Positions 1 through 25,419 of a DNA stretch of 32,962 nucleotides are shown piece by piece; within the stretch, counting starts at the first letter, position 1, and every line of letters begins with the position of its first letter. This DNA is from an uncultured Planctomycetales bacterium (GTDB taxonomy: Bacteria; 4484-113; JAFGCY01), in contig CAYXMN010000005.1 in assembly GCA_964465955.1 (NCBI GenBank), forward strand, positions 1 to 32,962, written 5' to 3'. Both the position numbers and the translations under genes were made by a program. The notes under the pieces were generated by a model. That model made no database searches. It saw nothing but the letters and a program-made list of their open reading frames with translations, and was not told the origin of the DNA.

Positions 1-286
1 CGCCGTAACCGCCGCCGCCGCCGAACCCGGAGCGGGGACGATCTTCCTTCGGCTTGGCTTCGTTAACCTTCAGCGTCCGCCCCATCATCTCCGCCCCGTT
101 CAAAGAATCAATCGCCTTCTGCGCCTCGGCGGAGTCTGACATCTCGATGAACGCAAATCCCTTCGAACGTCCGGTGTCCCGGTCGGTAATCACCCGCACC
201 GACTCAACCGCGCCATGGGCGGAAAACGCCGTGCGCAGATCATTCTCGGTGCAATCATAGGACAAATTGCCCACGTAAATATTCAT
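1..286 (-). CDS. RRM-type RNA-binding protein with glycine-rich tail; the 3' end runs off the window
   Basis: Absent from the ORF track because there is no stop in the window. Minus-strand translation from ATG 286..284 gives MNIYVGNLSYDCTENDLRTAFSAHGAVESVRVITDRDTGRSKGFAFIEMSDSAEAQKAIDSLNGAEMMGRTLKVNEAKPKEDRPRSGFGGGGGYG. RNP2-like IYVGNL and RNP1-like KGFAFIEM motifs are present. GGAG lies 7 nt upstream of the ATG. Confidence 0.8.
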   Translation of the reverse strand, partial: MNIYVGNLSYDCTENDLRTAFSAHGAVESVRVITDRDTGRSKGFAFIEMSDSAEAQKAIDSLNGAEMMGRTLKVNEAKPKEDRPRSGFGGGGGYG

Positions 287-5169: not shown

Positions 5170-6036
5170 ATGATACACCGCGATGAGTATTGGCGGATGG
5201 CCCAGCGCGGCGCGGCAACGCTGGCGGAAGCCGGGCTGGCGGACATCGAGCTGGCCGTGCAGTGCGGCAGCGGCCTGGGCCGCCTGGGCAATGACTTGCT
5301 GGGCAACGCGCCAGCCATTGACATGGACGCTGTGCCCTATCTGCCCGCGGCGACCGTGACCGGCCATGGGCACCAAGTGCTGGCGGGGCAGGTGGGCCGG
5401 ACGCGCGTGTTGATCTACACTGGGCGCATCCATGTCTACGAGGGCCACACCCCGGAAGTCGCGGGCTTGCCCGCGGCCATCGCAAAAGCACTGGGCGCGC
5501 GTGCGTTCATCGCGATCAACGCCGCCGGGGGACTCAATCCGCAGTTCCGCCAAGGCGGGATCATGCTGCACCGCGACTATCTGAACTTTCAAGGCGACAA
5601 CGCTCTGGCGCATCTGGATTGCCCGGACCCCGCCGAGCGGTTCCTCGACATGCGCGAGGCTTACCACCGCGGCTTAGGCGGCGCACTGTGGCGCAGCCTG
5701 GCCGCCGCCGGCGCGCGGCAACTTCACGACGGGATCTACGCGGCGGTGCGCGGGCCGGTGTTCGAAACACCGGCGGAGTTGCACTGGCTGCGCAGCACCG
5801 GCGCCGACGCGGTGGGGATGAGCACGGTGCCGGAAATCATGGTCTGCCGCTGGCTCAGGCTGGCGGCGGCGGGAATTAGCGTGATCACCAACGAATGCCT
5901 GGGCGAGACCGGGCCGGAACACGGCGCGATCATCGCCGCGGCGGCAGGTGCTATACCTATCTTGGCGCGTGGGCTGCGCCATATGTTGGAGGATGGCGGA
6001 TGGCAGTTGTCACTAACGGAGGAACCTGGCGGCTAG
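5170..6036 (+). CDS. Purine nucleoside phosphorylase (trimeric PNP/MTAP family)
   Basis: Motifs GSGLG, TGRIHVYEGH, INAAGGLN, VRGPVFETPAE and GADAVGMSTVPE are present. I cannot separate PNP from MTAP specificity by eye. Confidence 0.85.
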   Translation: MIHRDEYWRMAQRGAATLAEAGLADIELAVQCGSGLGRLGNDLLGNAPAIDMDAVPYLPAATVTGHGHQVLAGQVGRTRVLIYTGRIHVYEGHTPEVAGLPAAIAKALGARAFIAINAAGGLNPQFRQGGIMLHRDYLNFQGDNALAHLDCPDPAERFLDMREAYHRGLGGALWRSLAAAGARQLHDGIYAAVRGPVFETPAELHWLRSTGADAVGMSTVPEIMVCRWLRLAAAGISVITNECLGETGPEHGAIIAAAAGAIPILARGLRHMLEDGGWQLSLTEEPGG

Positions 6037-7334
6037 CCTGTCTCGTGGCGCTCGCCGGAATAAGTTTGGCGCTGGCGCTGCCAAGCGGAGCCTTAGCGCA
6101 AACCACCGGCCTGGACCAGCTTGGGCGCTGGTATCTGGCCGAAGTGGACTGGAGCGACCGCGGCGCGCTGCCGTCGGATAACGAGCTGGCCGCGCCGTTG
6201 ATCGCGGAGTATAACTGGGCTTACGGTGCGATCATGATGGGGCTCAACGTCCGGGCGCGCGGCACGAGCAGCTATTACGCGGCGGTGGCGCTGAACGACA
6301 ACGCGAAGCTCGACGCGCTCGACAGCTTCGGCCCGGTCAGCAGCCCGGCCCTGTGGGATGCCGGGAAATATCATCTGGCGGCGGGATTGCCCAGCGGCCA
6401 GCTCGTGGTCTGGCTCTGCGCCCCCGGCACCCAGCCGCGGCGCGTTGTGCTGACGGACAGCTACACCGCCGGCACCGGTTTCGATTTGGCGGTGTATCCG
6501 CCAGATCCCATCAGCACTGATTGGAGCAAGTGGGTCATTTCCGCCGCCTACCAGTACAGCAAGGGCGATTCCGGCCTGCAGGTGGAATCGTTCCACGGCG
6601 ACGGCCGCTCGCTGGACTATACCAACACCTTACCCACGCCGGGCAACCTGGTCAGCGTGCAGTACATGGACTATCCGCTGGAAGACGGTAACATCACGCC
6701 CTACGTAGTCTTCAGCTGCGAGCGCGATACCCGTCCGGTGGCGGGCAACAACAGCCACACCGGCTTGCAGGCGGCGTGGTACAGCGGCGCCGAGGGGCGC
6801 TGGGTCCCGGTGGTCCTGCGCGAAACAGGGGTGTACTTGGGCAAGACCTACCTCGCCCAGTCCGGCACGGCCATTACGGCGCTGGCTGCCTTCGACCAGA
6901 CAGATGCCGGCGGCGCCTACGGCGGGCTGCAGCTCATCTCCACCAGCGCGAACCGGCATGGCCAGGTGGCCAGCACGCTCCACAGCAATTGCTGGCTGCC
7001 CTGTGCCCCGCAATCCAACAACCTGTGCTTCCTCCAGAGCGCGCGGGTGTCTAGCCCCTTCACCGTGCTCAGCGACGGGCTGGACGTGTTTTTTGGCTGG
7101 CGAGTCCAACCCGCGGGCGGCGGGCAAGGCGTGGATTATTACCACTTGCGGCTGTTCCAGGGGGAACGCTCCGCGCAAGGCGCGGCGAATACCGCGCATT
7201 ACCCGGTGCTGGGGGTGGCGGCGGCGGCGCACTGGAGCACCGGCGATCCGTCAATCTATTGGGTTCAGCGCGGGAATGACCGCGGCGAGGCCGGCGGCGT
7301 GCTCTACCAGCTGGTCTACTGGGCGGGCGCCTAG
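6000..7334 (+). CDS. Hypothetical secreted protein (signal peptide); no recognised domain
   Basis: The track ORF starts at 5895 inside the PNP gene. The internal ATG at 6000 gives MAVVTNGGTWRLACLVALAGISLALALPSGALAQ, a Sec-type signal peptide with an ALA-Q site. It overlaps the PNP 3' end by 37 nt. Confidence 0.6.
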   Translation: MAVVTNGGTWRLACLVALAGISLALALPSGALAQTTGLDQLGRWYLAEVDWSDRGALPSDNELAAPLIAEYNWAYGAIMMGLNVRARGTSSYYAAVALNDNAKLDALDSFGPVSSPALWDAGKYHLAAGLPSGQLVVWLCAPGTQPRRVVLTDSYTAGTGFDLAVYPPDPISTDWSKWVISAAYQYSKGDSGLQVESFHGDGRSLDYTNTLPTPGNLVSVQYMDYPLEDGNITPYVVFSCERDTRPVAGNNSHTGLQAAWYSGAEGRWVPVVLRETGVYLGKTYLAQSGTAITALAAFDQTDAGGAYGGLQLISTSANRHGQVASTLHSNCWLPCAPQSNNLCFLQSARVSSPFTVLSDGLDVFFGWRVQPAGGGQGVDYYHLRLFQGERSAQGAANTAHYPVLGVAAAAHWSTGDPSIYWVQRGNDRGEAGGVLYQLVYWAGA

Positions 7335-8938: not shown

Positions 8939-9967
8939 TTACAGCCCGCTGCGCACCCAGCCGCGCAACTGTTCCACCGCCTGCCACAGCTCCAGTACGC
9001 CGTCTTGCACCTGCGCCGCGAGCTGCTCCAGCCGCCCGGCCAGTACACGATCCAGCAGCTCTGATACTTGCGCGCGCAGGACGAACGCCAGCTCGCGCAC
9101 TAGGCGTTGGCGGCGGCGCGGATGCCCGGCGGGCAGAGCTGCCAGCCAGGCGCGGTGCCGTTCCAGCTCTTTCGCCAAGTCCGCCACCCCGAGGCCTTGC
9201 TGCGCCGCTAAAGCCAAGACGGGAGGCTCCCAAGGCGCCAGCCCAGCGCTAACCGGGACAGGGGCGGCCGCGGCCTCAGCGGCGGACTGAGCCGCCAGGC
9301 CGTGATGTGCTATATCGCTTGCGCTGATACTGCCAAGCTCCAGGCTGAAACGGATTTCTTTGAGCAGCAGCTCCGCGCCGGGACGGTCGCACTTGTTCAC
9401 CGCGAACACGTCGCCAACTTCCAGGATGCCCGCCTTGAGCAGTTGCACCCCGTCGCCGCCTTCCGGGCTGAACAGCGCTACGACGGTATCCGCCAGGCAG
9501 ATTACGTCGTAGCCGGTTTGCCCCACGCCGACGGTCTCAATCAGGATCCGGCCGTACCCCGCAGCTTCGAGTACGCTGGCTACCGCGCTCGCCCCCGGCG
9601 TTACGCCGCCTAGGCTGCCGCGGCTGCCCAGCGAGCGGATAAACACATCAGGATCACCCTGGCCCTCGCTGATGCGCAGGCGATCACCGAGCAGCGCGCC
9701 GCCGGTGAAGGGGCTTGTCGGATCGACCGCGATCACTCCGACCCGGTGCCCCGCGCGGCGCAGTTCTCTGATCAGCGCGTTGAGCAGGGTGCTTTTACCC
9801 ACGCCGGGACTGCCCGTCACGCCGATACGGTGGGCCGGCGCCGCTGGCGCGGGCAGGCTGGCCAGCAATGCGCTCACATCCGCCGGCGCGCCGGTGGCGG
9901 CCGTGCTGAGAATGCGTCCAAGCTCGGTCTGGTCCGCGAGCTGTGCTACGTCAATTAGCGACGGCAT
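8939..9967 (-). CDS. meaB: MeaB/ArgK-type G3E GTPase (methylmalonyl-CoA mutase-associated family)
   Basis: P-loop GVTGSPGVGKSTLLNAL is followed by GHRVGVIAVDPTSPFTGGALLGDRLR, ILIETVGVGQ and VNKCD. No mutase gene lies nearby in this window. Confidence 0.85.
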   Translation of the reverse strand: MPSLIDVAQLADQTELGRILSTAATGAPADVSALLASLPAPAAPAHRIGVTGSPGVGKSTLLNALIRELRRAGHRVGVIAVDPTSPFTGGALLGDRLRISEGQGDPDVFIRSLGSRGSLGGVTPGASAVASVLEAAGYGRILIETVGVGQTGYDVICLADTVVALFSPEGGDGVQLLKAGILEVGDVFAVNKCDRPGAELLLKEIRFSLELGSISASDIAHHGLAAQSAAEAAAAPVPVSAGLAPWEPPVLALAAQQGLGVADLAKELERHRAWLAALPAGHPRRRQRLVRELAFVLRAQVSELLDRVLAGRLEQLAAQVQDGVLELWQAVEQLRGWVRSGL

Positions 9968-11171
9968 AGTGGTATACCTTATTGGTGGCGGAATCGGTCA
10001 CGAAGCAATGGCGGCCATCGTCTGACACATCCACTGCGTACGGATCAACCAAGTCTCCCAAGCCGAAGCTGCCGATGCGCTCTAGACGCGGATTAAGCAG
10101 CGCCACCTCGCGGCGGCCGCCGTCCAGCAAGAACACTAGCCCGCTTGGCGCAACGTCCACATCGATGGGAATGTCGAAGCGCTGGCCAAGCTCCGGGCTC
10201 GCCGCGGACACGATGCGTAGCAGCGTCCCCCAGTTTGCCTCAGGATCAGACCGTCCTTCGAAGATTTGCAGCCGACGGTTGCCGCCGTCGCAGACGATGA
10301 GCTTGTTGAAGGCAAAGGCAATCCCGCCCAGGTGGTTAAAGGCGCCCGGCGTGGAGCCGGCATTGCTGGCGATCTGCAGCTGCATGAAGGACTGCGGCTT
10401 GCCGGCCAAATCGACCTTGGCGTTCATGATTGCACTGAAGTTCGGCACCTCGCACAGCGTCTTCGTGCGCCAGCGCCCGCTGCCGGGCACGCACAGGTAC
10501 AGGTAGTTGCTGGTGGAATCCGCGTAGCCCACCGTCGGCCCGTCGGCGGCGATGAACGAGGGCCAGAGCATCTGGGAGGTCATGAAATTCTTTGGCACGC
10601 CGTCCGGGGTGACCAGGTAGAATCCGGCTCCGCGCTTGGCGTGCACCCCGGTGTTGGTGTGCGCTTGATCCGCCAGCCAGAATCCCGCCGGGGTGACAAC
10701 AACGTCCGCGGCTTTGAACAGGCGGCCTTGGCTGTCGATCCACGGCGCGCCGTACGCGGCTTCCCAGTTGCCCCGCTTCTTAGTGCCCTCCCGCTGCTGC
10801 TGGTGGAGCAACTCGTCGCTGGGTAGCGTGCCTGCCAGCGCATTGCCTTGGCCCACCTCCCGCAGGTACTTGCCGTTGAAATCAAAGATTTGCACGCGGC
10901 TGATGCCGAGATCGCACACCCACACTTCGCCGGCGGTGGCGCACAGCCCGGCGATTTCGCAAAACTGGCCCGGCGGGTAGAACGTGTTCCAGGGATCAGC
11001 GCCTTCCGCGAGCGGTGGCGCCGGTTCGCCAAAGGTTCCGGCCAGCTTCCACGCAGTTTCGAACTCGTCGCTCGCGCCCTGCACAGGCAGGTCGGCGTCC
11101 ACGCGCTGGAGGCAGCCGCCCAGCAAGGGCAGCGCAGCCAGCAGCGTGATGGTTAGCAATCTCAAGCTCAT
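9951..11171 (-). CDS. NHL-repeat beta-propeller lipoprotein
   Basis: The signal peptide has a lipobox: MSLRLLTITLLAALPLLGGC. NHL-like repeats include SRVQIFDFNGKYLREVG, RRLQIFEGRSDP and PYAVDVSDDGRHCFVTDSATNKVYHY. The start overlaps the upstream stop (ATGA) and the stop overlaps the meaB start by 17 nt. Confidence 0.75.
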   Translation of the reverse strand: MSLRLLTITLLAALPLLGGCLQRVDADLPVQGASDEFETAWKLAGTFGEPAPPLAEGADPWNTFYPPGQFCEIAGLCATAGEVWVCDLGISRVQIFDFNGKYLREVGQGNALAGTLPSDELLHQQQREGTKKRGNWEAAYGAPWIDSQGRLFKAADVVVTPAGFWLADQAHTNTGVHAKRGAGFYLVTPDGVPKNFMTSQMLWPSFIAADGPTVGYADSTSNYLYLCVPGSGRWRTKTLCEVPNFSAIMNAKVDLAGKPQSFMQLQIASNAGSTPGAFNHLGGIAFAFNKLIVCDGGNRRLQIFEGRSDPEANWGTLLRIVSAASPELGQRFDIPIDVDVAPSGLVFLLDGGRREVALLNPRLERIGSFGLGDLVDPYAVDVSDDGRHCFVTDSATNKVYHYAVAN

Positions 11172-11905
11172 GCGGTTCCCGTAACGATGATATACCCTGC
11201 CTGGGGAGTTAGCCGATCCAACAGCAGGTGGAAGTCGTAATTGAGCTGCTCCTTGGCGCGATCGATATCCTTTTTACTACGCTCGTGGAACTTGGCCAAG
11301 TCATAGACCGGGTTCACCTCGCGCTCGATGAGCTTGTTCACGGGGCCGGGCACCTTCATCCCCGCCATCTTGCTGCGATCGATACTGAAGATGAGCTGCG
11401 TTTGGTTCTGCACGCTGAGGTTGCCCTTCACTTCGAACGGAATGCGGGTGAGCAACGCGGAGTAGCTGCCCTGCAGCGCCACGCCCTCCTCATCAATGGT
11501 TACCTGCGGATCCGGGCCCAGCTCGGTAGTGTCAGCCTGCAGCGCATCCGTCAACGCTTGCTCGGTGATGGTGGTTTGAAAATCGATTGACCCGATGGAC
11601 AGCTTGCCCTCCGCGCCGGGCTGCACGCCGCCGACGGTGATCACGGCATGCTTGATCAGCAGCGGCTCCAAATACAGGTCCGTGAAATCGAAGGTGAGTT
11701 GGACACTGCCGGGCGGCGGAGCTTGCTCGCCGTCTTTCAACGTCAGCTCTTCAGCGGGAGTCGCCGTGATGTGCACGTCCGCCAGCGGCACCGGCGGGTG
11801 CTTCAGCACGGTCTCGCGCACCTGGGCTTCCACCTCCGCCGGACTCGCGCCCGCGCTCATCAGGCTTGCCACCGCCGCCAGCAGCAGCGCGATCAGTTCA
11901 GCCAT
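11168..11905 (-). CDS. Hypothetical exported protein, possibly DUF2993/LmeA-like
   Basis: The track ORF (to 12070) overlaps tmk. The internal ATG at 11905 gives MAELIALLLAAVASLMSAGASPAE (signal or anchor) and overlaps the tmk stop as ATGGCTGA. The domain call rests on overall resemblance only. Confidence 0.5.
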   Translation of the reverse strand: MAELIALLLAAVASLMSAGASPAEVEAQVRETVLKHPPVPLADVHITATPAEELTLKDGEQAPPPGSVQLTFDFTDLYLEPLLIKHAVITVGGVQPGAEGKLSIGSIDFQTTITEQALTDALQADTTELGPDPQVTIDEEGVALQGSYSALLTRIPFEVKGNLSVQNQTQLIFSIDRSKMAGMKVPGPVNKLIEREVNPVYDLAKFHERSKKDIDRAKEQLNYDFHLLLDRLTPQAGYIIVTGTA

Positions 11906-12575
11906 TTCGCCATTCCTCCAGTTTGTGGTCCACGGCCCGCCGCACGGCTCCCGCGGTCTCATCCACCGAGCCGCCGCTGGGTATCCGGACGTAGCGCGCC
12001 GGCTCGCGGTTCGCCAATTCCGCGTAACGCTGGCGCACGCGCATGAAATACCCGCGGTCGCGCCGTTCAATGGCGTCCAAGGCCTCCGGCTGGTTCGCGG
12101 CCTGGCCCAGCGCCAGCGCCAGCGGGTAGCGCCGGCCCAGCGCGTCTTCAGGCGGCAAATCGAGCCAGAGCGTCAGGTCGGGCTTGAGCCCGCTCGCCGC
12201 GGCATGGCACACCGTGCGCAGCGTGTTCTCGCCAATCCGGCCCAGCGCGCCTTGATAGGCGAGCGTGCTGTCGGTGAAGCGATCGAGCACCACGAGCCGC
12301 CCTTCCGCCAGGTCCGGCTTGACCCGCACCTCCACCAGTTCCGAGCGCGCCGCGCAAAACAGCAGCAGCTCCGCCAGCGGGCTGTGCGCCAGCCCGGCCT
12401 TGGTCAGCTCGCGGATTTGCTCACCGAGCAGCGTGGCCCCCGGTTCGCGGTACGTCGTGGCGCGCAGCTGGCGCGACGCCAGGTGCTGCATCAGCAGGTT
12501 GACGTGGGTCGTCTTACCCACGCCGTCAATGCCTTCAAGAGTGATCAACCGCCCGGCCCGGTCACTCACGCCCAT
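11898..12575 (-). CDS. tmk: Thymidylate kinase
   Basis: P-loop ITLEGIDGVGKTTHVNLL, then YREPGATLLGEQIR and LVVLDRFTDSTLAYQG. The start was chosen at ATG 12575 (MGVSDRAGRLITLEG), and the track start at 12716 was rejected as an extension into the upstream gene. Confidence 0.9.
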   Translation of the reverse strand: MGVSDRAGRLITLEGIDGVGKTTHVNLLMQHLASRQLRATTYREPGATLLGEQIRELTKAGLAHSPLAELLLFCAARSELVEVRVKPDLAEGRLVVLDRFTDSTLAYQGALGRIGENTLRTVCHAAASGLKPDLTLWLDLPPEDALGRRYPLALALGQAANQPEALDAIERRDRGYFMRVRQRYAELANREPARYVRIPSGGSVDETAGAVRRAVDHKLEEWRNG

Positions 12576-13215
12576 CCTCCTGCGGGCGCACCGTGCCGGC
12601 GAGGGCCCCGCTAGCCACGAGCTGCTGCGTCGCGGCGCGCGCCAGGTCTTGCAGCACGCGGCGGGCCAGCTGGGCCGTGTCTTTGGTGCGGGCGCTATAA
12701 GCCTTGGGCTTGTCAAAATCGGCGATGCCGTCCGCCACGACTAAGCCCGTTTGGCACTCGACCAGCCGCCAGGACATCGCCCCCTTGGCGGTGGGATAAC
12801 TCGAACCCGCGTTGGGCCAAGTGCCGCCGGTGATCTCCACCCCGCCGAACACGCCGGTCAGCAGCGCTTCCACTTCGAAGTGCGCCCCGAGCTTGACCGC
12901 CTCGTCCAGTAGCAACGGGCCTGCGGGCAAGTCGAGCGCCGCGGGATCGACCAGCACGAACTCCACCTCGGGCAATTCCTTTTCAAGCTGAGCCTGCCAG
13001 ATTGTGAGCAGATCCGCCGCTCCGTCGCGCAAGCCGCCGTCATCGCGCAGCGGCGCCAGGCCCACCCGGGTGAACTGCCCGCTGCTGGCCGCGGCGTCGG
13101 CCGATTCCGCCAGCGTCCCGCCCTCCGCCAAGGCAGTCCCGGCCCGCAAGCTGAGCGCCGCCAGCAGGGCCAGACCCAAGCATCGGATGAGGTGAAGGGT
13201 GCGTACCCGGAGCAT
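12562..13215 (-). CDS. Hypothetical secreted protein
   Basis: Signal peptide MLRVRTLHLIRCLGLALLAALSLRAGTALAEG. No confident domain. The stop overlaps the tmk start by 14 nt. Confidence 0.55.
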   Translation of the reverse strand: MLRVRTLHLIRCLGLALLAALSLRAGTALAEGGTLAESADAAASSGQFTRVGLAPLRDDGGLRDGAADLLTIWQAQLEKELPEVEFVLVDPAALDLPAGPLLLDEAVKLGAHFEVEALLTGVFGGVEITGGTWPNAGSSYPTAKGAMSWRLVECQTGLVVADGIADFDKPKAYSARTKDTAQLARRVLQDLARAATQQLVASGALAGTVRPQEDGRE

Positions 13216-14418: not shown

Positions 14419-15177
14419 ATGGGGTACGGTTTTCGCTACGTATTAGGCGCAGTGGTTTTAATCGCCGTGTTGTTCGCTGGGCTTTCGCTGTTGCCCACGG
14501 CGATCAACCAGTGGCTAGTTCCCGCCGGCACCAGCCAGTCCAAGACCGCGGCCAGCGCGCCCAACCCGGCGGACCAAGCCCAGCAAGGCGCCTACAAACT
14601 GCCCGTCCCCGCCCCGCCGCAACCGCCCACCAAGCGCACGCCCGGCGGCGTGTCGAACCCGCCGCGCAAACCCGGCCCCACCGCTTCGAGCAGCGGGCAC
14701 GCGCAGCCAGCCGGACCGGCAGGCGGCGCTCCCGGCGGCGGCGGACCGGGTAATACTCCCGGCGCCGGCTCTGGCGGCATCATCGGCAGCCTGCCCGGCG
14801 GCGCCACGGGTGGAGGCAACGCCGGCGCGCCCGCCAGCCGCCCCCCTGTCACCGGCGGGCCCGCCAGCTCCGCGCCCGCGCCGCAGTGGTTCAAACTGGG
14901 CGGCGCTCAGCCGGATGACGGCCAAGCCTTGAATGCCATCGGCTGGCGCCAGGCGCGGTTTAGCCTGATCCTGCATAAGGAACCGGCCGGCGAGCCGTTC
15001 CGCGCCGCCACGAAAAGCAAAGCGCCGCTGACAATCGTCAAGGGCTCCCGGTTATGGGCCATCCGCCAGGAGGGGGAGTGGATCCTGGTGCGCTCGCCGG
15101 GCCGCACCATCGGCTGGGTCAATGCGGGTGATTTGGAGCCGATGTCGAGCACGCTGCAAATGCTGTACGGCGGGTAA
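14419..15177 (+). CDS. Membrane-anchored Pro/Gly-rich protein with C-terminal SH3b-like domain
   Basis: N-terminal TM segment VLGAVVLIAVLFAGLSLL. A low-complexity P/G/A linker of about 130 aa follows. The C-terminus GSRLWAIRQEGEWILVRSPGRTIGWVNAGDLEP resembles bacterial SH3. Confidence 0.6.
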   Translation: MGYGFRYVLGAVVLIAVLFAGLSLLPTAINQWLVPAGTSQSKTAASAPNPADQAQQGAYKLPVPAPPQPPTKRTPGGVSNPPRKPGPTASSSGHAQPAGPAGGAPGGGGPGNTPGAGSGGIIGSLPGGATGGGNAGAPASRPPVTGGPASSAPAPQWFKLGGAQPDDGQALNAIGWRQARFSLILHKEPAGEPFRAATKSKAPLTIVKGSRLWAIRQEGEWILVRSPGRTIGWVNAGDLEPMSSTLQMLYGG

Positions 15178-15301: not shown

Positions 15302-16753
15302 CTAGTGCTTGATCATCTCCCAATATGCCTGAGCTTCAAACTCCGGGCTGTTAAAGTCATCATGGCAGCCCAGGCAGCCTGCCACGCTCCCGCGGTCAAT
15401 GCTGAAGCCTCCGGCGGCGGCGCCGCCACCGCCCTGCATCAGCTCGGCATGCGCGCGCCCCGGCCCATGGCAGGACTCGCAGCTCACCGCGCTGACCGCG
15501 TCGCGCGGCTCCAGCGGGTCGTAGCCGCCGTTATCCAGCAGCGCGACCGTGTGGCACTCCAGGCAGTCCAGGCTTTCCTGCTCGTTCTGTGCCACCAGGC
15601 TCGCCAGGGCGTGGCTGTGCGCCGACTTGAGCCAAACCTGGTAGGCGCCGGCGTGGCAAGCGGCGCAGGCATCGGCACCCACATAGTCGTAGACCGGCTG
15701 TGCCTGGGGCATGTATTCGCCGCTCATTGTGAAGTTGTTGTCCTTCCAGCCGTCCTTGCGCACTTGCTTGGCCAGGCCCAGCCGCTCGCGAGCGCTGGCT
15801 TGCTCGCTGGTCAAGCAGGCCAGCACCTGGTCATCATCCAGCCAGTAATCAGCCAGCTCCTGCGACCAGGTGAACGGTGTTGTGCGCCCTTCGGTGAACT
15901 GCGCCATGGTCAGTGTGGTGATGCGCGGGACGGGCGGGGGCAGCACCGTCGCGCCCCCGCGCGGCGCCTGCCCCGCCGGCTCGCCAATCACGACGTCCAC
16001 CGGCAACCCGGCGAGCTGCGCCACCACCTCGGGCGGCTGGCCCAGGGCGGAGACAATCACGTGTGCGCCTTCGGGCAAGGCGTCGAGCACCGTCTGCACA
16101 CTCGCCACGGGTTCGGCCAGCTCCCACCACCCCGCCGGCGCCACGCCGGGAATCGCCTCATAGGCAGTCACGCCCACCACATACCAGCCGGAGCATAGCT
16201 GCAGGAACTTGCCGATCTTCACTCCATCAAGCTTTACCGAGAGGTTGCAGCTCGCCAGCGGCACCGGCGGATCGGCAAATGCGGCCTGCGCATCCGCGGC
16301 GTTCAAGTTGAGCTCCGCCGCGCCGATGACTGCCCCCGCCGCACCGATAACTTTAAGGATGTCGAGATGCGTGCGCGCGCGCAGGTCGGGGAAGTGCGCC
16401 TCCGGGTCGGCGAAGCTGCCGCAGTCGAACACCACCAGCGGCGGATCCGCGCGGGTGCCCTCCGGGTAGAGCACCATCTCGATGCGATACTGCGGATCGC
16501 CATTCGGGTCGTAGTTATCGAGCACTAAACCAAGGCGCGGCAGACCGCCGCTTTGGTGGGTGTCTCAGCCGCAGGGCCGCTGGAAGCCGCGCAGGTCGCC
16601 GAGGTAGGCCAGCGTCAGCGCGTCCGGCGCGGCGGTCACCTGCGCCCCGCGCCCGGCGGTTTCCCTGGCCGGTTGCGGGCAGGCGGCGAGCACCAGGCCG
16701 GCCAGCACCGCCGCCAGCGTAGTCAGCCGCGAGTTCAAGCGCGCATACCGCAC
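15302..16753 (-). CDS. Predicted selenocysteine-containing lipoprotein: degenerate metallophosphoesterase-like N-domain fused to a tetrahaem c-type cytochrome (TGA at 16567..16565 read as Sec)
   Basis: Track ORFs 16565..16753 and 15302..16525 are in the same frame and joined by a single TGA: ...LRGFQRPCG-TGA-DTHQSGGLPRLGLVLDNYD... The upstream part is a lipoprotein signal peptide (LVLAAC). The downstream part has CAACH, CLECH, CESCH and CLGCH (about 15361-15667) but no signal peptide of its own. The start is GTG at 16753. Confidence 0.6.
16529..16567 (-). promoter_or_regulatory. Candidate bacterial SECIS element (UGA plus downstream hairpin)
   Basis: The minus-strand RNA is UGAGACACCCACCAAAGCGGCGGUCUGCCGCGCCUUGGU. 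With U of UGA as 1, the lower stem is A11-U39, C12-G38, C13-G37, A14-U36 and A15-U35. An internal loop follows. The upper stem is G17-C31, C18-G30, G19-C29, G20-C28 and C21-G27. The apical loop is G22 G23 U24 C25 U26. Confidence 0.5.
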
Positions 16754-16819: not shown

Positions 16820-17746
16820 CTAGCGTGCCGGCGCAGCGGCCAGCGCCCGCCCCAGCGCCCGCGAGAACCGCTCCGCCTCCGCCGCGTCTAGGTGGCTGTT
16901 GTCCGGCGCAGCGTACTCCGCCGGATCGAAGCTGAGCCAGGTGCCGCCCGCCGCCGCGAATTGCAGCGCGAACGAATCCTCATCAAAGCCGCTCAGCTCG
17001 TTTTCCAGGGCGGTCATTGCCGCGCCCGCCGGGGGGCGGAAACCAAACACGCGCACGCCGCGCGCCGTCCAGCTCCGCACCTGCTCCAGCATTCCCGCCG
17101 TCAGCCGCGCCGACACCCGGTCGCGTTCGAACAGCTGGCGATAGTTCGCCAGCTTCGCCGCGCCGCCTTTGCCGGACACGTTGTAATACGCCTCCCAGCC
17201 GTCGGCATGGCGCACGCTGTACTCCCCGCCCCGGCCACGCCCAGCCAGGCGCTTGAGCTGGAGCGGCGTGTACGGCGCGAACCAGCCTACAGCCCGCCCG
17301 CCGTGCGCGGCGAGCCATAGCTCCACCGGCTGCTGGCGCCGCGCGGCGACGAATGCGTTCTCCGCCACCGCCGTCTCGCACAGCGCGCCGGGGCTCACGC
17401 CGATCACGATGCATGGGCTCGAACTGACTGGGTCGAGCACCGCGTCCGCCGCCTTTAGGTAGTCTGCGTCGAGGCCGCAGCCCGCCAGGCCGAGGTTCGC
17501 GATGCGCACACCGGGCAGCGCCTCATTCATTGCCGCCGGGCTCACGCCGCGTTCGACGCGCGAGTTGCCGAGCAGCACCAGATCGAAGCGCGGCCCCCAC
17601 AGCGCTTTGCGCGCGACGAACTGGGCTTCCGCCAAGCCGCCATCGGTGTTCGGGCGCAACCCCACCCCGGCGCAGATCAGCAGCGCCGCGAGCACGAGCG
17701 TAAGCGCGGTGCGGCCGGGGGCCATGGTGCTGCCCGCCGTCGTCAT
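16820..17746 (-). CDS. SGNH-like esterase/acyltransferase, paralogue 2 (putative polysaccharide O-acyltransferase partner)
   Basis: N-terminal anchor ALTLVLAALLICAGV. Block-I-like LVLLGNSRVERGVSP and block-V-like DNSHL are present. It is clearly homologous along its length to the upstream gene. The start overlaps the upstream stop (ATGA). Confidence 0.6.
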   Translation of the reverse strand: MTTAGSTMAPGRTALTLVLAALLICAGVGLRPNTDGGLAEAQFVARKALWGPRFDLVLLGNSRVERGVSPAAMNEALPGVRIANLGLAGCGLDADYLKAADAVLDPVSSSPCIVIGVSPGALCETAVAENAFVAARRQQPVELWLAAHGGRAVGWFAPYTPLQLKRLAGRGRGGEYSVRHADGWEAYYNVSGKGGAAKLANYRQLFERDRVSARLTAGMLEQVRSWTARGVRVFGFRPPAGAAMTALENELSGFDEDSFALQFAAAGGTWLSFDPAEYAAPDNSHLDAAEAERFSRALGRALAAAPAR

Positions 17747-18747
17747 CGCGGGGCTCCTGGCGAGGAAGAGCCGTGGTGGCAGATGCCCTCGATAAATCTA
17801 CCTCCGTCTAAGCTGCCTCCCGCGCTATCCGCAAGGATGCGCCGCGCCACCTCGCGCGAGAGCTGATCAGCGCTGTCCGCGCGCAGGTGGCTGCCATCGT
17901 AGGCGTGGTACTTGAGCGGGTCGAGCTCGAGCCACACACCGCCCGCCTCGGTGAACCGGCGCGGGAAATGCCGCGCGTCGAACCGGCTCAGGCGCTGCTC
18001 CAGCTCGTACATCTCCGGGCCCACCGGCGGGCGCAGGCCGTAGACGCGGATACCCGCCTGCCGCCAGGCGCGCACTTGGCGCAGCAGCGCCGCCGCCGCC
18101 GCCGGGCTGGCCGGCCCGCTGCGGAAGATCGCCTTGTAGTCCGCGAGCTGCAGCGTCTGGTCCTCAGGCTCGCGGGTGGAGGCGACGAAGCCGTCGAGCC
18201 GATACTCATTCCTATAGGTAACCTTGCGCCTGCCCCCGCGCAGCGCAGCGAGTACGTCCGCGAACTCATATGGCGCGAGCCAGCCCGGCAGCCGTCCGCT
18301 ATGCGCCGTGAGCCACATTTCAACAGGCTGGCGCCGGGCGAGATCGTGGAAGCCGTTGCTCTCTTGCGCGCTGGGAGTAAGCGTCCGCGGAGTGACGCAC
18401 AACAGGATCACGCGAGTGGGGCTGGCCGGATCGAGTACCTGCTCCGCCGCGGCGAGGTATTCCGGCGCATAGCCGTTGGCGCTGAAGGCGTAGTTGACGA
18501 TGCGCAGGCCGGGCAGCACCTGCCCCATCGCCGCGGGCGACAGGCCGCGGAACGCGCGCGAATCGCCGAGGATCACCACGTCCGCGCAGTGCACCCAGCA
18601 CATCTTCTGCGCCCAGAATGTACCCTCGGGTATACCGGTGTTCCCGCCCGCCGGGCGCGCGACGCCGCACAGCCCGATCAGCACCAGGCTGATCAGGAGC
18701 GTCTGCACCGTCGCGTCACTTATTACTTTCATCTTAGAACTGCGCAT
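17743..18747 (-). CDS. SGNH-like esterase/acyltransferase, paralogue 1 (putative polysaccharide O-acyltransferase partner)
   Basis: N-terminal anchor TLLISLVLIGLCGV. The GDS motif VVILGDSRAFRGLSP and the DGSHL motif near the C-terminus are present. It lies directly downstream of the MBOAT gene. The alternative start is ATG 18732. Confidence 0.6.
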   Translation of the reverse strand: MRSSKMKVISDATVQTLLISLVLIGLCGVARPAGGNTGIPEGTFWAQKMCWVHCADVVILGDSRAFRGLSPAAMGQVLPGLRIVNYAFSANGYAPEYLAAAEQVLDPASPTRVILLCVTPRTLTPSAQESNGFHDLARRQPVEMWLTAHSGRLPGWLAPYEFADVLAALRGGRRKVTYRNEYRLDGFVASTREPEDQTLQLADYKAIFRSGPASPAAAAALLRQVRAWRQAGIRVYGLRPPVGPEMYELEQRLSRFDARHFPRRFTEAGGVWLELDPLKYHAYDGSHLRADSADQLSREVARRILADSAGGSLDGGRFIEGICHHGSSSPGAPR

Positions 18748-20194
18748 AGATGAACGCCCCGCCCGGCCCGCGCAGGAACACGCTGGCGGCGAGAATTAGC
18801 GCCAGCCACAGCGGTTCGAGCCGCGCGCGCCACGCCGGCGCGGGCAGGAACCGCCAAAGCCGGAAATACACCCAGGCCTCGCGCGCGATAGCCAGCGCTA
18901 GCACGAGCAGCGCGAGCTTGCTGAGGCCCAGCGCCGCGCCGGGATTCAGCTCGCCCAGGCTCAGCAGGCGGGTCAACACCACCCAGGCTTGATCGAGGCT
19001 GCCGGCACGGAACACGACCCAGGCCAGCGACACCTGCAGCAGCGTGAACAGCGTTGCCAGTATGCCGCCGAGCGGCAGCTTCTGCAGCCGCGTGTGCCAG
19101 CGTGTCGCACGCTCGAACACAAGGTAGAAGCTGTGCAGCGCGCCCCAGACCACGAACGTCCAGGCCGCACCGTGCCACAGCCCGCATAGCGTGAACGTCA
19201 CCAATGTGGCGAGGTACGCCGCGCGGCTGGCGCCAATGCTGTTCGCCTGGCGCTTGTTCCCGCCACGCGGGCGCAAGCGGTAAGCCCAGCGGTTGGCCAG
19301 CGGCATGAACAGGTACGCGCGCAAAAAGCCGGTCAGGCTCATGTGCCAGCGGTTCCAGAAGTCGCCGACGCCGCGCGCGGTATAGGGATGGTCGAAGTTA
19401 TCGGCGAGCTTGAGGCCCAGCCAGTGGCCAAGGCCGATTGCGATGTCACTGTATCCCGCGAAGTCGCAGTAAACCTGTACGGTGTACATCGCGACGATGA
19501 CCCACCAGTACAGCGCACTCGCCTCCGGCGTGGCCGCGCCGAAGGCCTGGTTCACGACTGGCGCGAGCTGGTCGGCCAGCACCGCCTTCTTGAACAGGCC
19601 GTGGGCGATGAGCTGCATCCCGCGGAAGCGGCGCGCGCTGTCCGGCGGCTGCCAGTCGAGCAGCCCTGGCAACAGGTCACGCGCGCGGGTGATGGGGCCG
19701 GCCAGCAGCGCCGGCCAGAGCGACAGGTAAGCGAAAAGGTGCAGGAAACTCGCGGCGGGTTTGACCGCGCCGCGCGATACGTCGAGTACGTAAGTCAGCG
19801 CGAGGAAGGTGTAGAAGCTCAACCCCAGCGGCAAGGCGAGGCGCACCACCGGCAGCAGGCCGCCGCCGCCCAGCAACTCCACTAGCGAGTTGAGGCTCTC
19901 GGTAAGGAACCCTAGATATTTGAAGACGCCGAGCAGGCCGAGAATGAACACGACGCCCAGCGCGAGCGTGAGGCGCTGCCGCCCCGGCCAGCGCACCAGC
20001 GCGCCGCCGCACGCGTAAGCGCCGAGGCTGACCGCGAGCAGCAGGAAGAGGTAGCGCCAATCGTGCCAGCCGTAGAACAGCAGCGCCGCTCCGGAGAGAT
20101 AGAGCCAGCGCGAGGTTGGCCGCCGCGCCGCCAGCGGCCAGCCGGCGAAGAACACGGCAGCGAATACAACGCACACAAATGAGTTAAAAAGCAT
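18734..20194 (-). CDS. MBOAT family membrane-bound O-acyltransferase (AlgI/DltB/PatA-like)
   Basis: Multi-TM protein starting MLFNSFVCVVFAAVFF. The signature FWNRWHMSLTGFLRAYLFMPL contains the conserved His. Confidence 0.9.
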   Translation of the reverse strand: MLFNSFVCVVFAAVFFAGWPLAARRPTSRWLYLSGAALLFYGWHDWRYLFLLLAVSLGAYACGGALVRWPGRQRLTLALGVVFILGLLGVFKYLGFLTESLNSLVELLGGGGLLPVVRLALPLGLSFYTFLALTYVLDVSRGAVKPAASFLHLFAYLSLWPALLAGPITRARDLLPGLLDWQPPDSARRFRGMQLIAHGLFKKAVLADQLAPVVNQAFGAATPEASALYWWVIVAMYTVQVYCDFAGYSDIAIGLGHWLGLKLADNFDHPYTARGVGDFWNRWHMSLTGFLRAYLFMPLANRWAYRLRPRGGNKRQANSIGASRAAYLATLVTFTLCGLWHGAAWTFVVWGALHSFYLVFERATRWHTRLQKLPLGGILATLFTLLQVSLAWVVFRAGSLDQAWVVLTRLLSLGELNPGAALGLSKLALLVLALAIAREAWVYFRLWRFLPAPAWRARLEPLWLALILAASVFLRGPGGAFIYAQF

Positions 20195-20230
20195 CTTGCG
20201 CCACGGGCCGGCGGATGAGATTGGCTCGTA

Positions 20231-21757
20231 TTATGCGGGCGCGGCTTTGCCCGCGTCAAGGCCGGCGAGCCTGGCGAGCGTATCCAGCCCCGCGGAGACC
20301 AGCGCACGCTGCGACGGCCCGCGCAGCATGGAGCGTGGCTGAACCAGGATGCGCGCTAGCGCGGCCAGCGCATCTGCCGTGGTTTCCGCCGCGACCGCCA
20401 GCCCGCTGTCCAGCTCGGTGCCGTAATGGTCCCGCGCCGCCGCGTCAAGCACCAGCGAATGCATTCCGGCCAGCGCCGCCTCACGCACTACCGTGCTGGA
20501 GCGCGTCACATGCGCGTCGAGGCGCGTTAGCAGCAGCGGCAGCGGCGCGTCGGCGGCGAGGTCCAGCTCGTAGCGCCCCGGCGCGCATTGCTCCAGTGCG
20601 GCTCGCACCGCCGCGCGCTCCCCGGCCTGCACCGGATGCGGGCGCACCCACCAGTGCCAGTCCGCCGGCGAGGCGGCGAGCAGTTGGCGCAACCCCGGCG
20701 TTAGCCCCAAGTCCCATTGCAGCGAGAGCAGGATGTGCCTGCGCCCAGGGTGCGCGGCGAGCGCGGAGTTGATGCGCGCCAGTTCCTGCCGCGCCGCCGG
20801 CGTGTCCGCGCCTTCCCACAGCGCTTGCCAGGGATTGCCGCCAACCAGCGCGCGTGCGCCTTGCGCCCCGGCCCATTCATTGATTTGCAACGCACTCTCA
20901 GCATCCCAGCACCAGAACACCGTCGGCAACGTGGTGTAGCCGCCAGCCGGCGCGCACTGCCACGGGCCGTAGGCGAAGTGGTAACGCCCTTGCACGCCGT
21001 GCTGCACGTCCACGCACGGGAGGCCCAGCCGCCGCGCGGCCAGGCACAGCGCCATGCCCTCCATGGAGTAGTAGTACGTCGTCAGCGCGAGCTTGGCCCC
21101 GCTGGCCTGGAGGTAGCGCGAGAACAGCCCCGCCCAGCGGTGGAGGAGGCCAGCCTGGCGCGCCAGGAGCGGCGGCGTCAGACCCGGCATGCCCGCGCCA
21201 GTGGCTTGCACGGCTGCGACGATGTCGCGATACTGCGCAAATTGCTCCACGACAGCGCTGCGGACGGCGCCGCGCACCCGGTTGCGGAGGTTGGCCAGGT
21301 GCAGCGCGCTTTGGATGTAACGCGTGGGCAGCGCGCGCGGTGTGCGGAATGCGCCGCTGGGGCAATACTCCAGACCGAGGCATGTTAAGCCGCGCCGGGC
21401 AAGTTCCTCGCGCAGGTAGTCCAGCAGGCGGTCGTAGTACGCCCCGCCCGCCGGCGAGCGGTACGCGCTGTGGTGCAGCACGAGAACGTCAGCGCGCTGC
21501 GCGACCACCGCGTTCTGCACTCTGTCGGTCTGGACCGCCAGGCGCTGGGCCAGCAGCGCTTGAACTAACTTGCGCATTCCCCGTGGCGTGGCATGGGACG
21601 CGCTACCGCTTCCGCTCACCTCGCCTGTTACACGCAGCGCGTTGGCCAGTTGGAAGCGCACCGCCGGCCACAGGAGCACGTCTCCGGCGTGCCAGGTTTC
21701 CAGCCGGCATTCCCGCTCCAGCTCCCAAATCAACTCCATGTACTCCTGCGGCCGCAT
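20231..21757 (-). CDS. Putative polysaccharide biosynthesis enzyme, GT-B-like (weak resemblance to Capsule_synth KpsS/KpsC or TagF-type transferases)
   Basis: The track ORF extends to 22096 across the flippase 3' end. ATG 21757 (MRPQEYMELIW) overlaps the flippase stop by 1 nt. The motifs ILLSLQWDLG and WWVRPHP resemble the LQvxxD and KxHP motifs of capsule transferases. The family call is tentative. Confidence 0.45.
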   Translation of the reverse strand: MRPQEYMELIWELERECRLETWHAGDVLLWPAVRFQLANALRVTGEVSGSGSASHATPRGMRKLVQALLAQRLAVQTDRVQNAVVAQRADVLVLHHSAYRSPAGGAYYDRLLDYLREELARRGLTCLGLEYCPSGAFRTPRALPTRYIQSALHLANLRNRVRGAVRSAVVEQFAQYRDIVAAVQATGAGMPGLTPPLLARQAGLLHRWAGLFSRYLQASGAKLALTTYYYSMEGMALCLAARRLGLPCVDVQHGVQGRYHFAYGPWQCAPAGGYTTLPTVFWCWDAESALQINEWAGAQGARALVGGNPWQALWEGADTPAARQELARINSALAAHPGRRHILLSLQWDLGLTPGLRQLLAASPADWHWWVRPHPVQAGERAAVRAALEQCAPGRYELDLAADAPLPLLLTRLDAHVTRSSTVVREAALAGMHSLVLDAAARDHYGTELDSGLAVAAETTADALAALARILVQPRSMLRGPSQRALVSAGLDTLARLAGLDAGKAAPA

Positions 21758-23058
21758 CAGGACTGCTCTCCCGGCATCCGCCGCCACAGCGCCCACGGCA
21801 TCGGGTGCGCGCGCTGCACGAGCATAAAGGTCAGGCTGAACTTCACTGCGTAGCAGGCCAGCGTGGCCCAGCACGCGCCGATCGCGCCGTAGCGCGGCAC
21901 CAAGAGCCAGCACAGCCCGAGGTTGACCAGCGCGGCCGTGCTCGTGGTATAGGCGAGGAAACGCGTCTTGCGCGCAAAGAAGATGTAGTTCGTGACGAGC
22001 AGGTACATCCCGTCGAAGGCGAATCCCAGCGCGAGCAGCAGCACGTACTGCGCCGCGGCGAGGAACTTCGGGCCGAGCACGATCCCCGCTAGCCACGGCG
22101 CGAGCGTGCCCAGCAGCACGGCGGCCACCGCCTCCAGGCCGAAACCGGCGTAAGTGCCGATGACGAGCTTGCGCAGCACGGCGGGCTGGTTCGCTTTCAA
22201 CCGCTCAAACAGCCACGGCACATAGGCGCGGTTGAACGCGTCGTTGGCCATGTACAGCACCAGCGCGAGCTGCTGGCCGGCGGTGAACAGGCCGGTGCCG
22301 CCCAGGCCCTCCACGCCCGCCACGAATGAGCGCGACGTCAGCGCGATGGCGGCGTTGCCCAAGGCGTGCGGCAGCAGCGGCAAGCCAAAGCTGAGCGCGG
22401 CGCGCATCTGGCCCCAGTCTGGGCGCCAGCGCGACAAGCCGGCGGCCTGCTGCAGCACGAGGGCCAGCGCACCGGTCGTGCTGGCCGCAAGGAGCTGGCC
22501 CACCACGCGCCCGCTCCAATCCCAATGCAGTCCCACGATCAGCCACACGCTCAGGCCGAAGTTGAGCAGCGAAAAGCCGAGGTTGAAGGCGATGTAGGGC
22601 CAGGGCATTTTGCGCACTTGCCACAGCGCGAGCATGGTCTGGCCCAGCGCCATGCCGAAAGCCGCCAGCGCCACCGCCCACAGCCACTCGCGGGGGAACT
22701 GGATCAGCCGCTCGATCAGCGGCCCGGCCAGCTGCAGCAGCCCAAGCAGCAGCACGGCCGCCGCGCTCATCAGCAGCGTGCAGTTGCCGACATAGCGCGG
22801 GAAGTCGGACTGCTCGCGGTCGTAGTACTGCCGCTGGATTGCGCCGTGCAGGTTGAGGTTGGCCAGCGGCGTGATGAAGTTCTCCAGCGAAGTGAACAGG
22901 CCGATCAACCCGTATCCGGCAGTGTCGAGCACGCGCGTCAGCACAGGCAGCAGCACGAACGGCACCAGCCGGTTGGCCAGCCCGCCGATGAAATACACCG
23001 AGACGGTTTTGGCCAACCCTGCGCCAGGGATTGTGAACCGCCGGGGTCGATCGCTCAT
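21757..23058 (-). CDS. Wzx-type oligosaccharide flippase (MOP superfamily polysaccharide biosynthesis protein)
   Basis: About 12 TM segments. The N-terminus KTVSVYFIGGLANRLVPFVLLPVLTRVLDTAGYGLIGLF is typical of Wzx/RfbX proteins. Confidence 0.85.
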   Translation of the reverse strand: MSDRPRRFTIPGAGLAKTVSVYFIGGLANRLVPFVLLPVLTRVLDTAGYGLIGLFTSLENFITPLANLNLHGAIQRQYYDREQSDFPRYVGNCTLLMSAAAVLLLGLLQLAGPLIERLIQFPREWLWAVALAAFGMALGQTMLALWQVRKMPWPYIAFNLGFSLLNFGLSVWLIVGLHWDWSGRVVGQLLAASTTGALALVLQQAAGLSRWRPDWGQMRAALSFGLPLLPHALGNAAIALTSRSFVAGVEGLGGTGLFTAGQQLALVLYMANDAFNRAYVPWLFERLKANQPAVLRKLVIGTYAGFGLEAVAAVLLGTLAPWLAGIVLGPKFLAAAQYVLLLALGFAFDGMYLLVTNYIFFARKTRFLAYTTSTAALVNLGLCWLLVPRYGAIGACWATLACYAVKFSLTFMLVQRAHPMPWALWRRMPGEQS

Positions 23059-24306: not shown

Positions 24307-25419
24307 TTAACGCTGGTCCAGCGCTGTCAGCACCGCAGCCGCTTGCCTGGCCCGCGCCAGCCAAGTGTGCTGCTCCCGCCGCTCAATCACCCGCGCCCGC
24401 AGCGCTTGCACCTGGTCTAGACCGGCGTGCAGCTGAATGAGCAGCTCGCGGTACTCCTCCACGCTGCCCGCCTGCCAGCCCAGGCCGTGCTGCCGCACGA
24501 AGCGCGACCCGGCGGTTTCGCCGAGGCATGCCAGCGGCAGCGCCCAGCCCAGCGCCTCAGTCACCTTCACCGGCACGGTAAGCTGCAGGTACGGATGCTC
24601 GCCGATGGCCAGCGCGAACACATGGGCCGTGGCGGCCAGCTTGGTCAAGGCGGCGCCGCTGTGGTGCACCACGCGCACCTGGCGTGGATTGAACGCGCCG
24701 AGCCGCCCGCGTTGCGATTCCCATTCCGCCTGGCGGCAGCACAGCGTGAGGCGTACATGCTCCAGGCCGCGCAACGCCGCGAACAGCCCGGTCAGGTCGT
24801 ACAACGGCGGAACCACCCCGCCGACATACAGCAGGTGCAGATTGCCGTTCTGCTCCGGTTCGAGCCCCGCCGCGCCGACCTGCGGCGTGCAACCGGGCGG
24901 CAGCGCGCTTAAGCGTTCCGCCGGCCAGCCGCCGGGCACTACGCCGGCCATCTCCACCTGCGGCAGGAAGAGGTGATCGATGGCGCGGCGGTACCAGCGC
25001 AGGTCGTGGCCGTGGAAAGTTTCCAGCACGCGCTTCTTCCAGCCGGGGAAACGCGGCGGGTAGATGTCGAAGACGTAGTGCAGGTCGCGCAGGAAGACGC
25101 CGGACGGGATGCCGGCGCGGCGCACGGCCAGGAATAGGCTCGGTTCCAGCCAGGGCCTGAGCGGCAGGTGGTGCGGGTCCGCCAGCGCCGACGGTGTAGT
25201 GGAAGACTCGGCGTACAGAAAATCGAAACGCGATCCGGCGCGCAAAGCCAGGTGTAGCTTGCGCAAGGCCGCTTGGCGCTGCGCGCTATAGCCCGAGGCA
25301 TCGAGTACGTCGTAACCTAGCTCACGGAAGGCGGCCAGCATCGCCGTTGCGCGCACACGGCTGCCAGACGCGCCTGCCGCTTCCAGGGGCAGTGGATGAT
25401 GAAATATCATCTTCGGCAC
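24307..25419 (-). CDS. Putative glycosyltransferase (GT-B fold)
   Basis: The N-terminus MIFHHPLPLEAAGASGSRVRATAMLAAFRELGYDV and its position inside the EPS locus support the call. The start is GTG 25419 (overlapping the upstream stop by 1 nt) or ATG 25410. The family assignment is tentative. Confidence 0.55.
   Translation of the reverse strand: MPKMIFHHPLPLEAAGASGSRVRATAMLAAFRELGYDVLDASGYSAQRQAALRKLHLALRAGSRFDFLYAESSTTPSALADPHHLPLRPWLEPSLFLAVRRAGIPSGVFLRDLHYVFDIYPPRFPGWKKRVLETFHGHDLRWYRRAIDHLFLPQVEMAGVVPGGWPAERLSALPPGCTPQVGAAGLEPEQNGNLHLLYVGGVVPPLYDLTGLFAALRGLEHVRLTLCCRQAEWESQRGRLGAFNPRQVRVVHHSGAALTKLAATAHVFALAIGEHPYLQLTVPVKVTEALGWALPLACLGETAGSRFVRQHGLGWQAGSVEEYRELLIQLHAGLDQVQALRARVIERREQHTWLARARQAAAVLTALDQR

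Follow-up and report, generated by a model that had tools for sequence, protein, structure and literature searches.

Two described systems come closest to the locus analysed here. One is the selenoprotein family 'COG0737 UshA-like, CxU', which has been listed since the Global Ocean Sampling (GOS) analysis by Zhang & Gladyshev 2008 (PMC2398784) and is also present in later listings (PMC9312934, PMC13188914). The other is the selenocysteine insertion sequence (SECIS) of Escherichia coli fdhF (Rfam RF01988, SECIS_2), in which G23 and U24, numbered from the U of the UGA codon, are conserved loop positions, while G23 and the bulged U17 are contacts of SelB (PMC8659212). More generally, bacterial SECIS elements have a loop of 3-9 nucleotides (nt), an upper stem of 4-16 base pairs (bp), a G in one of the first two loop positions (usually as G[G/U]), an apical loop located 16-37 nt from the UGA, and a folding energy of -7.5 kcal/mol or lower (PMC13188914). 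Here, we describe a gene on contig CAYXMN010000005.1 from an uncultured Planctomycetales bacterium, a stretch of 32,962 nt that was analysed as a whole and is referred to as the window. The gene has a single in-frame TGA at codon 63 and, directly 3' of this codon and inside the continuous reading frame, a hairpin. We consider it likely that the gene encodes an exported lipoprotein in which UGA codon 63 is read as selenocysteine (Sec), with the downstream hairpin acting as a bacterial SECIS.

Translation of the minus strand from 16753 to 15302 runs uninterrupted through the TGA as one frame. By contrast, in the list of open reading frames (ORFs) made with genetic code table 11 the gene appears as two parts of 62 and 407 amino acids (aa), both of which are in the same frame and both of which are covered by homologues as one protein. 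In order, the product consists of a lipoprotein signal peptide, the motif F-Q-R-P-C-G-U, an N-terminal domain of ~290 residues and a C-terminal domain with four CXXCH motifs. The codons around the site are ...CAG CGG CCC UGC GGC UGA GAC ACC CAC CAA AGC GGC GGU CUG CCG CGC CUU GGU UUA GUG...

The homologue set comprised 161 related loci from metagenomes and genomes, and the motif PCG[C/U]...Q.GGL was found in 97 of them. At the position of the proposed Sec, these 97 loci carry TGC (50 loci), TGT (35 loci) or TGA (12 loci), i.e. the residue is Cys in 85. Thus, the locus shows the pairing that defines selenoproteins, an in-frame UGA opposite Cys in homologues with conservation on both flanks. The closest relatives of the window protein are P0002, which is a Cys form (RPCGCDSHQSGGLPRL), P0003 and P0004. 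The latter two are split at the position of the window's TGA into a 62-aa ORF and a shortened gene. The P0004 locus, L001, is located on a 2.7-Mb contig (ena:ERZ21869602:ctg94833l) and its DNA has TGA at the matching codon; for P0003, the TGA is implied by the split of the gene calls. A search for further TGA-split relatives with the 62-aa N-terminal fragment returned the query only, and with regard to P0002 and P0003 a metagenome scan yielded distant relatives only.

The three split sequences diverge by ~35-40% in protein; between the window and L001, identity is 61% at the protein level and 67% at the DNA level. Because L001 carries the TGA too, this codon is not an error. Moreover, when the codons of the window and L001 are compared, identity at positions 1/2/3 amounts to 0.69/0.73/0.53 before the TGA and 0.73/0.78/0.51 after it; therefore, purifying selection has acted in one frame on both sides of the TGA. 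In cytochrome c maturation, haem attachment requires export of the haem domain. The haem domain of the product has a single export signal, the signal peptide encoded 5' of the TGA. In total, the recoding of the UGA as Sec is well supported, mainly by the protein alignment of Cys and TGA forms. The initial annotation had favoured recoding over a nonsense mutation, and the Cys/TGA alignment, the shared TGA, the coding flanks, the upstream signal and the fit to SECIS criteria described below all support that view.

P0002 (Cys) and P0003 (Sec), which are 73% identical, coexist in one metagenome (JGI sample 3300075153; P0002 at 5890-7329 of a 7,578-bp contig, P0003 on a 4,271-bp contig) and have alike flanking genes, an arrangement that points to a possible recent Sec/Cys switch inside the clade.

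The minus-strand RNA starting at the U of the UGA (window position 16567) reads UGAGACACCCACCAAAGCGGCGGUCUGCCGCGCCUUGGU. Numbered from this U, the lower stem is formed by A11-U39, C12-G38, C13-G37, A14-U36 and A15-U35, and the upper stem by G17-C31, C18-G30, G19-C29, G20-C28 and C21-G27; A16 lies opposite G32 C33 C34 in an internal loop, and the apical loop is G22 G23 U24 C25 U26. Every pair of the two-tier fold named in the initial annotation (11-15/35-39 and 17-21/27-31, loop GGUCU) is thus present, and the energy of this fold is -13.3 kcal/mol for nt 11-39 and -8.3 kcal/mol for the upper hairpin alone. Several codons in the hairpin are rare (GGU, 7% of Gly; CAA, 26% of Gln; CUU, 5% of Leu). 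The rare GGU codon provides U24, and the lower stem relies on rare codons.

The fdhF SECIS sequence with which the initial annotation had compared this hairpin is correct: in 5,419 of 5,426 complete E. coli genomes, fdhF matches a 45-nt string that includes TGACACGGCCCATCGGTTGCAGGTCTGCACC with 100% identity. As in fdhF, the hairpin is located in coding sequence directly 3' of an in-frame UGA. The heptamer GGUCUGC occupies +22..+28 in both RNAs, as had been claimed, with G23 and U24 equally far from the UGA and a spacing of 18 nt, and the folding energies are alike (-14.2 kcal/mol for a 42-nt fdhF segment and -13.3 kcal/mol for nt 11-39 here). By contrast, the covariance models RF01988 and RF01989 do not match the window hairpin, the loop has 4 nt in fdhF and 5 nt in the window, identity in the core (positions 15-31) is limited to ~10 of 17 nt, and neither the host gene nor the host lineage is related.

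The hairpin is within all limits of the bacterial SECIS criteria cited above, with a loop of 5 nt, a stem of 5 bp, GG in the first loop positions, a spacing of 18 nt and energies of -8.3/-13.3 kcal/mol. Because these criteria are permissive, agreement with them is necessary but not discriminating: a simple implementation of this consensus (bSECISearch model) passes 20% of the Cys homologues (27% of GC-matched ones) and 37% of the sequences obtained by synonymous resampling of the peptide. Hairpins that comply with the model at -7.5 kcal/mol or lower were present in 11 of the 12 TGA loci and in 20% of the Cys loci (Mann-Whitney p = 5e-7), a contrast that is driven by a second Sec clade, described below. 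The longest identical nucleotide run of the gene between the window and L001 is 27 nt at +9..+35, i.e. the hairpin; the next runs are 22 and 19 nt long. Within the 27-nt run, nine of nine consecutive codons are identical synonymous codons compared to 58% gene-wide. Moreover, L001 has an unchanged upper stem-loop, and there the fold with the GGUCU loop is both the minimum-energy and the centroid structure. Altogether, these comparisons support that the hairpin is a probable SelB-binding SECIS element.

Several observations weigh against this interpretation of the hairpin. No selA, selB, selD or tRNA-Sec was found in the window, which is the whole contig, nor was any tRNA. In comparison to fdhF, the upper stem has five G-C pairs in which G17 is paired, and an unpaired A16 instead of the bulged U17. 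The described fold is isoenergetic with the RNAfold optimum (-13.4 kcal/mol), in which stems 17-19/31-33 and 21-23/28-30 with G20 bulged enclose a UCUG loop, and this optimum places G22 and G23 inside a stem. The lower stem differs in L001, and the conservation of the hairpin rests on two TGA sequences, the window and L001, with common ancestry. Furthermore, the initial annotation had called for a comparison of the folding energy with shuffled controls, which gave no excess stability (z = -1.1 to -1.3 in dinucleotide shuffles). This test has little power because the genuine fdhF SECIS is itself not significant in it (z = -1.56). Synonymous resamplings, in which the peptide was fixed and the window's codon usage applied, were at least as stable as the native hairpin in 30-61% of cases. 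Thermodynamic stability as an argument for a SECIS was dropped, as the native hairpin is no more stable than these resamplings.

A SECIS-model check was also among the tests proposed in the initial annotation, which took a background score as evidence against the element. No Rfam SECIS model matched at gathering thresholds in the whole window or at E up to 10 in 16450-16650, whereas the positive control, E. coli fdhF, scored 87.1 bits with SECIS_2 (threshold 70) and 35.8 bits with SECIS_3. Thus, the score is indeed at background; however, the same models also miss L001 as well as the covariation-supported SECIS of L111 in the second Sec clade. Because the models hit only fdhF and miss the SECIS of the family itself, the negative outcome is not counted against a SECIS, and its meaning is limited to a lack of full-length similarity of the element to fdhF.

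Part of the hairpin follows from the encoded peptide. Gly-Gly-Leu-Pro (GGLP) is encoded by GGN GGN CUN CCN, which fixes G19, G20, G22, G23, C28 and C29, and C25 and U26 come from common CUN Leu codons. In the synonymous resamplings, for which the test of single features was post hoc, GGTCTGC was found at +22..28 in 3.3%, the complete upper stem in 21%, the upper stem plus GGU in 1.5% and all pairs of the lower stem in 0.3%. The claim that a match in both sequence and spacing is improbable by chance therefore holds to the extent of these 3.3% but was overstated, as the peptide forces G22, G23 and C28. All five upper pairs are present in 6 of the 85 Cys homologues; of the 17 Cys homologues encoding GGLP, 5 have them all. 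Because the full stem occurs in 21% of the resamplings and in these 6 Cys homologues, the upper stem is partly a by-product of GGLP coding. Among the Cys forms whose DNA was readable, the six closest ones have two to five of the five upper pairs, and their loops are GGCCU, GGGUU, GGUUU, GGCCU, GGGCU and GGACU. The GGUCU loop was found in 0 of the 85 Cys homologues and is present in both TGA orthologues. The initial annotation had reasoned that a hairpin kept by Cys orthologues merely encodes conserved protein sequence; this applies to the upper stem, which is retained in degenerate form and is complete in the 6 sequences, but not to the loop. In total, the resemblance to fdhF is real yet partly forced by the encoded peptide.

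These observations bear on the possibility that the UGA is decoded as Sec while the described hairpin is mostly a GGLP by-product in a GC-rich genome, the functional fold being the one with the UCUG loop or another overlapping structure and the likeness to fdhF being coincidental. The slight energetic preference for the UCUG fold, the frequency of the upper stem among resamplings and GGLP-encoding Cys homologues, the partial pairing in the closest Cys forms and the peptide-fixed G22, G23 and C28 are all in line with this possibility. We nevertheless regard it as unlikely. The first two positions of the UCUG loop lack the G expected in bacterial SECIS elements, whereas the fold with the GGUCU loop is the preferred structure in L001; the rare GGU is kept in both TGA orthologues, while their loop is absent from the Cys homologues; and no other downstream segment is conserved between the window and L001.

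There is a slight chance that the TGA is a true stop, in which case the locus would be a pseudogene or a split gene giving rise to a 62-residue lipopeptide and perhaps a 407-residue protein from GTG 16525, and the hairpin would have no recoding role. An in-frame GTG is present 14 codons past the TGA, which is where gene callers split the gene, and both the lack of Sec machinery in the window and a hairpin stability that is not above background are as expected if the TGA terminates translation. Against this, L001 shares the TGA and, as judged from gene calls, the split occurs at this site in a third assembly as well, despite the ~35-40% divergence in protein; selection has maintained one frame on both sides; the codon aligns with the conserved Cys of a known Cys/Sec family; and a restarted product would be without a signal peptide, leaving its four CXXCH sites without periplasmic haem. 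Because of the Sec/Cys pairing, the shared TGA, the coding flanks, the normal TGA stops elsewhere and the upstream signal peptide, we conclude that a nonsense mutation or split gene is very unlikely.

Finally, decoding of the TGA by a route other than Sec, such as its reassignment to Trp or Gly throughout the lineage or the insertion of Cys or Trp by near-cognate read-through, is extremely improbable: TGA is under-used as a stop for a genome of 66% GC (TAA 12, TAG 8, TGA 6) and the host lineage is uncultured and unclassified, but six likely genes end in TGA, no other has an in-frame TGA in 33 kb, and the lone in-frame TGA is exactly at the Cys/Sec position and is followed by a SECIS that complies with the model. 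Genome-wide reassignment in particular was rejected because TGA is a normal stop in 6 of the 26 likely genes and occurs in frame in no likely gene apart from the one described here. The stop-codon usage of the window (65.7% GC, 26 likely genes) is unusual in its own right, with stops for example at 9951, 11168, 12562, 13854, 17743 and 21757, and three of the six TGA stops sit in ATGA stop/start overlaps. L001 has a similar bias (TAG 6, TAA 4, TGA 3-4).

We compared the product with the UshA-like family. The C-terminal domain matches Pfam PF13435 (Cytochrome_C554; E = 8e-12), and all four CXXCH motifs are invariant across the alignment. The fold of the N-terminal domain was assessed on the Cys homologue P0002, which is 62% identical to the window protein, rather than on the window protein itself. 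The AlphaFold2 model of P0002 has a predicted local distance difference test (pLDDT) score of 85-98 across most of the N-terminal domain, and Foldseek matched the model to human CD73 and E. coli UshA (E ~1e-13, probability 1.0). The metal motif D-x-H-G is degenerate in the clade of the window, where it reads D/N-x-R-G (GDLRG or GNFRG). The best NCBIfam match of the window protein is NF041198 ('UshA_like_PCGU', UshA-like (seleno)protein), which is named after the PCGU motif, with 113 bits. The cytochrome part accounts for most of this score; on its own, the N-terminal domain scores 24 bits, and in the PCGU region only. Because 113 bits is below the cut-off of 275 bits, the protein is a divergent relative of the NF041198 family.

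Like members of this family, in which Sec and Cys forms coexist, the window protein has PCG-U at the homologous position, a predicted 5'-nucleotidase fold and a C-terminal CXXCH cytochrome domain ending in ...NSP.F....W..I.H. Unlike the true members L101 and L026, which score 300 and 291 bits and to which it is only ~25% identical, it does not reach the cut-off, and it has the altered metal motif described above. Most likely, the gene product is a mis-annotated, previously unlisted example of the already known UshA-like CxU kind of selenoprotein.

Ten other TGA loci (L007:711, L026:2006, L044:1817, L047:922, L101:3097, L102:3052, L106:3172, L111:3052, L128:408 and L152:2065) form one clade. 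The NF041198 cut-off was tested for two of the ten, L101 and L026, and both pass. The hosts of this NF041198-type Sec clade are Fibrobacteraceae and other metagenome-assembled genomes. The SECIS of this second clade has a 9-bp stem, ...GGCCC-GG[A/C]-GGGCC..., in which 94% of cells are paired compared to 29-59% when the partners are slid; compensatory changes are present at three pairs, and the covariation score is unmatched by any shuffle. The Arg codon pair CGG AGG is used consistently in this clade and forms the SECIS loop. In this SECIS, the loop (GGA or GGC) is at +32..+34, whereas the loop in the window is at +22..+26. In a neighbour-joining tree, the window and L001 are placed among Cys forms, far from the ten-member Sec clade.

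The existence of two Sec clades with loops 10 nt apart suggests that Cys may have been converted to Sec twice independently, or that an old SECIS changed its position. Tentatively, and with somewhat less than even confidence, we propose that the clade of the window arose by conversion of the same catalytic Cys to Sec, independently of the NF041198 Sec clade, and that the SECIS came from the palindrome imposed by GGLP, giving a hairpin that is located more 5' and that converged on the fdhF loop GGUC.

The preferred reading, in which UGA codon 63 is decoded as Sec with the help of the downstream hairpin, would operate as follows. At a distance of ~20 nt from the UGA, the five-base loop on the GC-rich upper stem (+17..+31) would expose G23 and U24. 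With the UGA in the A site, SelB carrying GTP and Sec-tRNA(Sec) would bind the apical GGU loop and prevail over release factor 2; after delivery of Sec, the ribosome would melt the hairpin and read Q-S-G-G-L-P-R. The SECIS itself may have been built on the GGN GGN CUN CCN palindrome and completed by synonymous choices, several of which are rare (CAA, GGU, CUU, GGU). In the protein, the C61-G62-U63 centre in the 5'-nucleotidase fold would probably be a redox site outside the cytoplasmic membrane that is fed electrons by the four haems. The Sec form, as predicted from the alignment, would mark residue 63 as catalytic.

Table 1. Coordinates of the features of the proposed selenoprotein gene in the window
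Feature	Position	Strand	Details and basis
Proposed selenoprotein gene, complete	15302..16753	minus	483 codons and TAG stop; GTG start; single in-frame TGA at codon 63
Lipoprotein signal peptide, lipobox L-A-A-C (Cys25)	16679..16753	minus	Translation; kept in L001 and P0002
P-C-G-U motif, with the proposed Sec codon of a C-x-U redox motif (TGA = 16567-16565)	16565..16576	minus	Translation; Cys/TGA alignment
UshA/5'-nucleotidase-like (calcineurin-fold) domain, ~residues 45-330	15764..16621	minus	AlphaFold2 model of P0002 and Foldseek
C-terminal tetrahaem cytochrome c domain	15305..15688	minus	CXXCH at residues 363-367, 397-401, 425-429 and 460-464
Candidate SECIS hairpin, nt +11..+39 from the U of the UGA	16529..16557	minus	Direct reading and folding
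Upper stem-loop GCGGC-GGUCU-GCCGC, +17..+31, proposed SelB-binding core	16537..16551	minus	Identical in L001
Apical loop GGUCU	16542-16546	minus	G23 = 16545, U24 = 16544

On one side, the neighbours of the gene are a Polysacc_synt-type gene, a hypothetical gene, an MBOAT gene and two more hypothetical genes (16820-22096, minus strand; 1-5709 in L001). The sizes in this upstream cluster are ~520-620 aa for one hypothetical protein and ~330 and 305 aa for the other two, for which searches of Pfam and NCBIfam gave no match. On the other side, the gene is flanked by a divergent hypothetical gene and ruvC-ruvA. This gene order is common to the window, L001 and JGI contigs, i.e. to three assemblies, and no functional link of the selenoprotein gene to its neighbours is evident. 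Downstream of ruvA, L001 has an IS1595-type transposase, a P63C-domain gene and a SocA_Panacea-domain gene (9146-12834); in the matching region of the window (12562-13215 and onward), none of these Pfam domains was found in the ORFs scanned. An AIRS-family gene at 4008-5102 (minus strand) was considered as selD and rejected, as it scores 228 bits with thiL (TIGR01379), above the cut-off, and 69 bits with selD, for which the cut-off is 125 bits. Five well-formed ORFs with typical third-position GC content (GC3) are without a Pfam or NCBIfam match at E <= 1e-3: 14419-15177 (plus strand), 24307-25419 (minus), 5895-7334 (plus), 2038-2658 (plus) and 2991-3980 (minus).

The gene is prone to mis-annotation as a 62-aa ORF and a shortened cytochrome, and P0001, P0003, P0004 and P0030 are already present in databases as such fragments; because the protein scores below its cut-off, the NF041198 model will not rescue the annotation. 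With this locus, the UshA-like CxU selenoproteins gain a divergent clade from an uncultured, unclassified lineage. The locus also indicates that a SECIS can occupy two different positions within one protein superfamily, and that a conserved palindrome coding for Gly-Gly-Leu-Pro can pre-adapt a site for SECIS evolution. If the independent origin proposed above is true, the family would be a natural case of convergence in the change from Cys to Sec, with a SECIS that originated in existing coding sequence. In this protein, the predicted Cys-Gly-Sec site would be part of a degenerate metallophosphatase fold that is wired to four haems.

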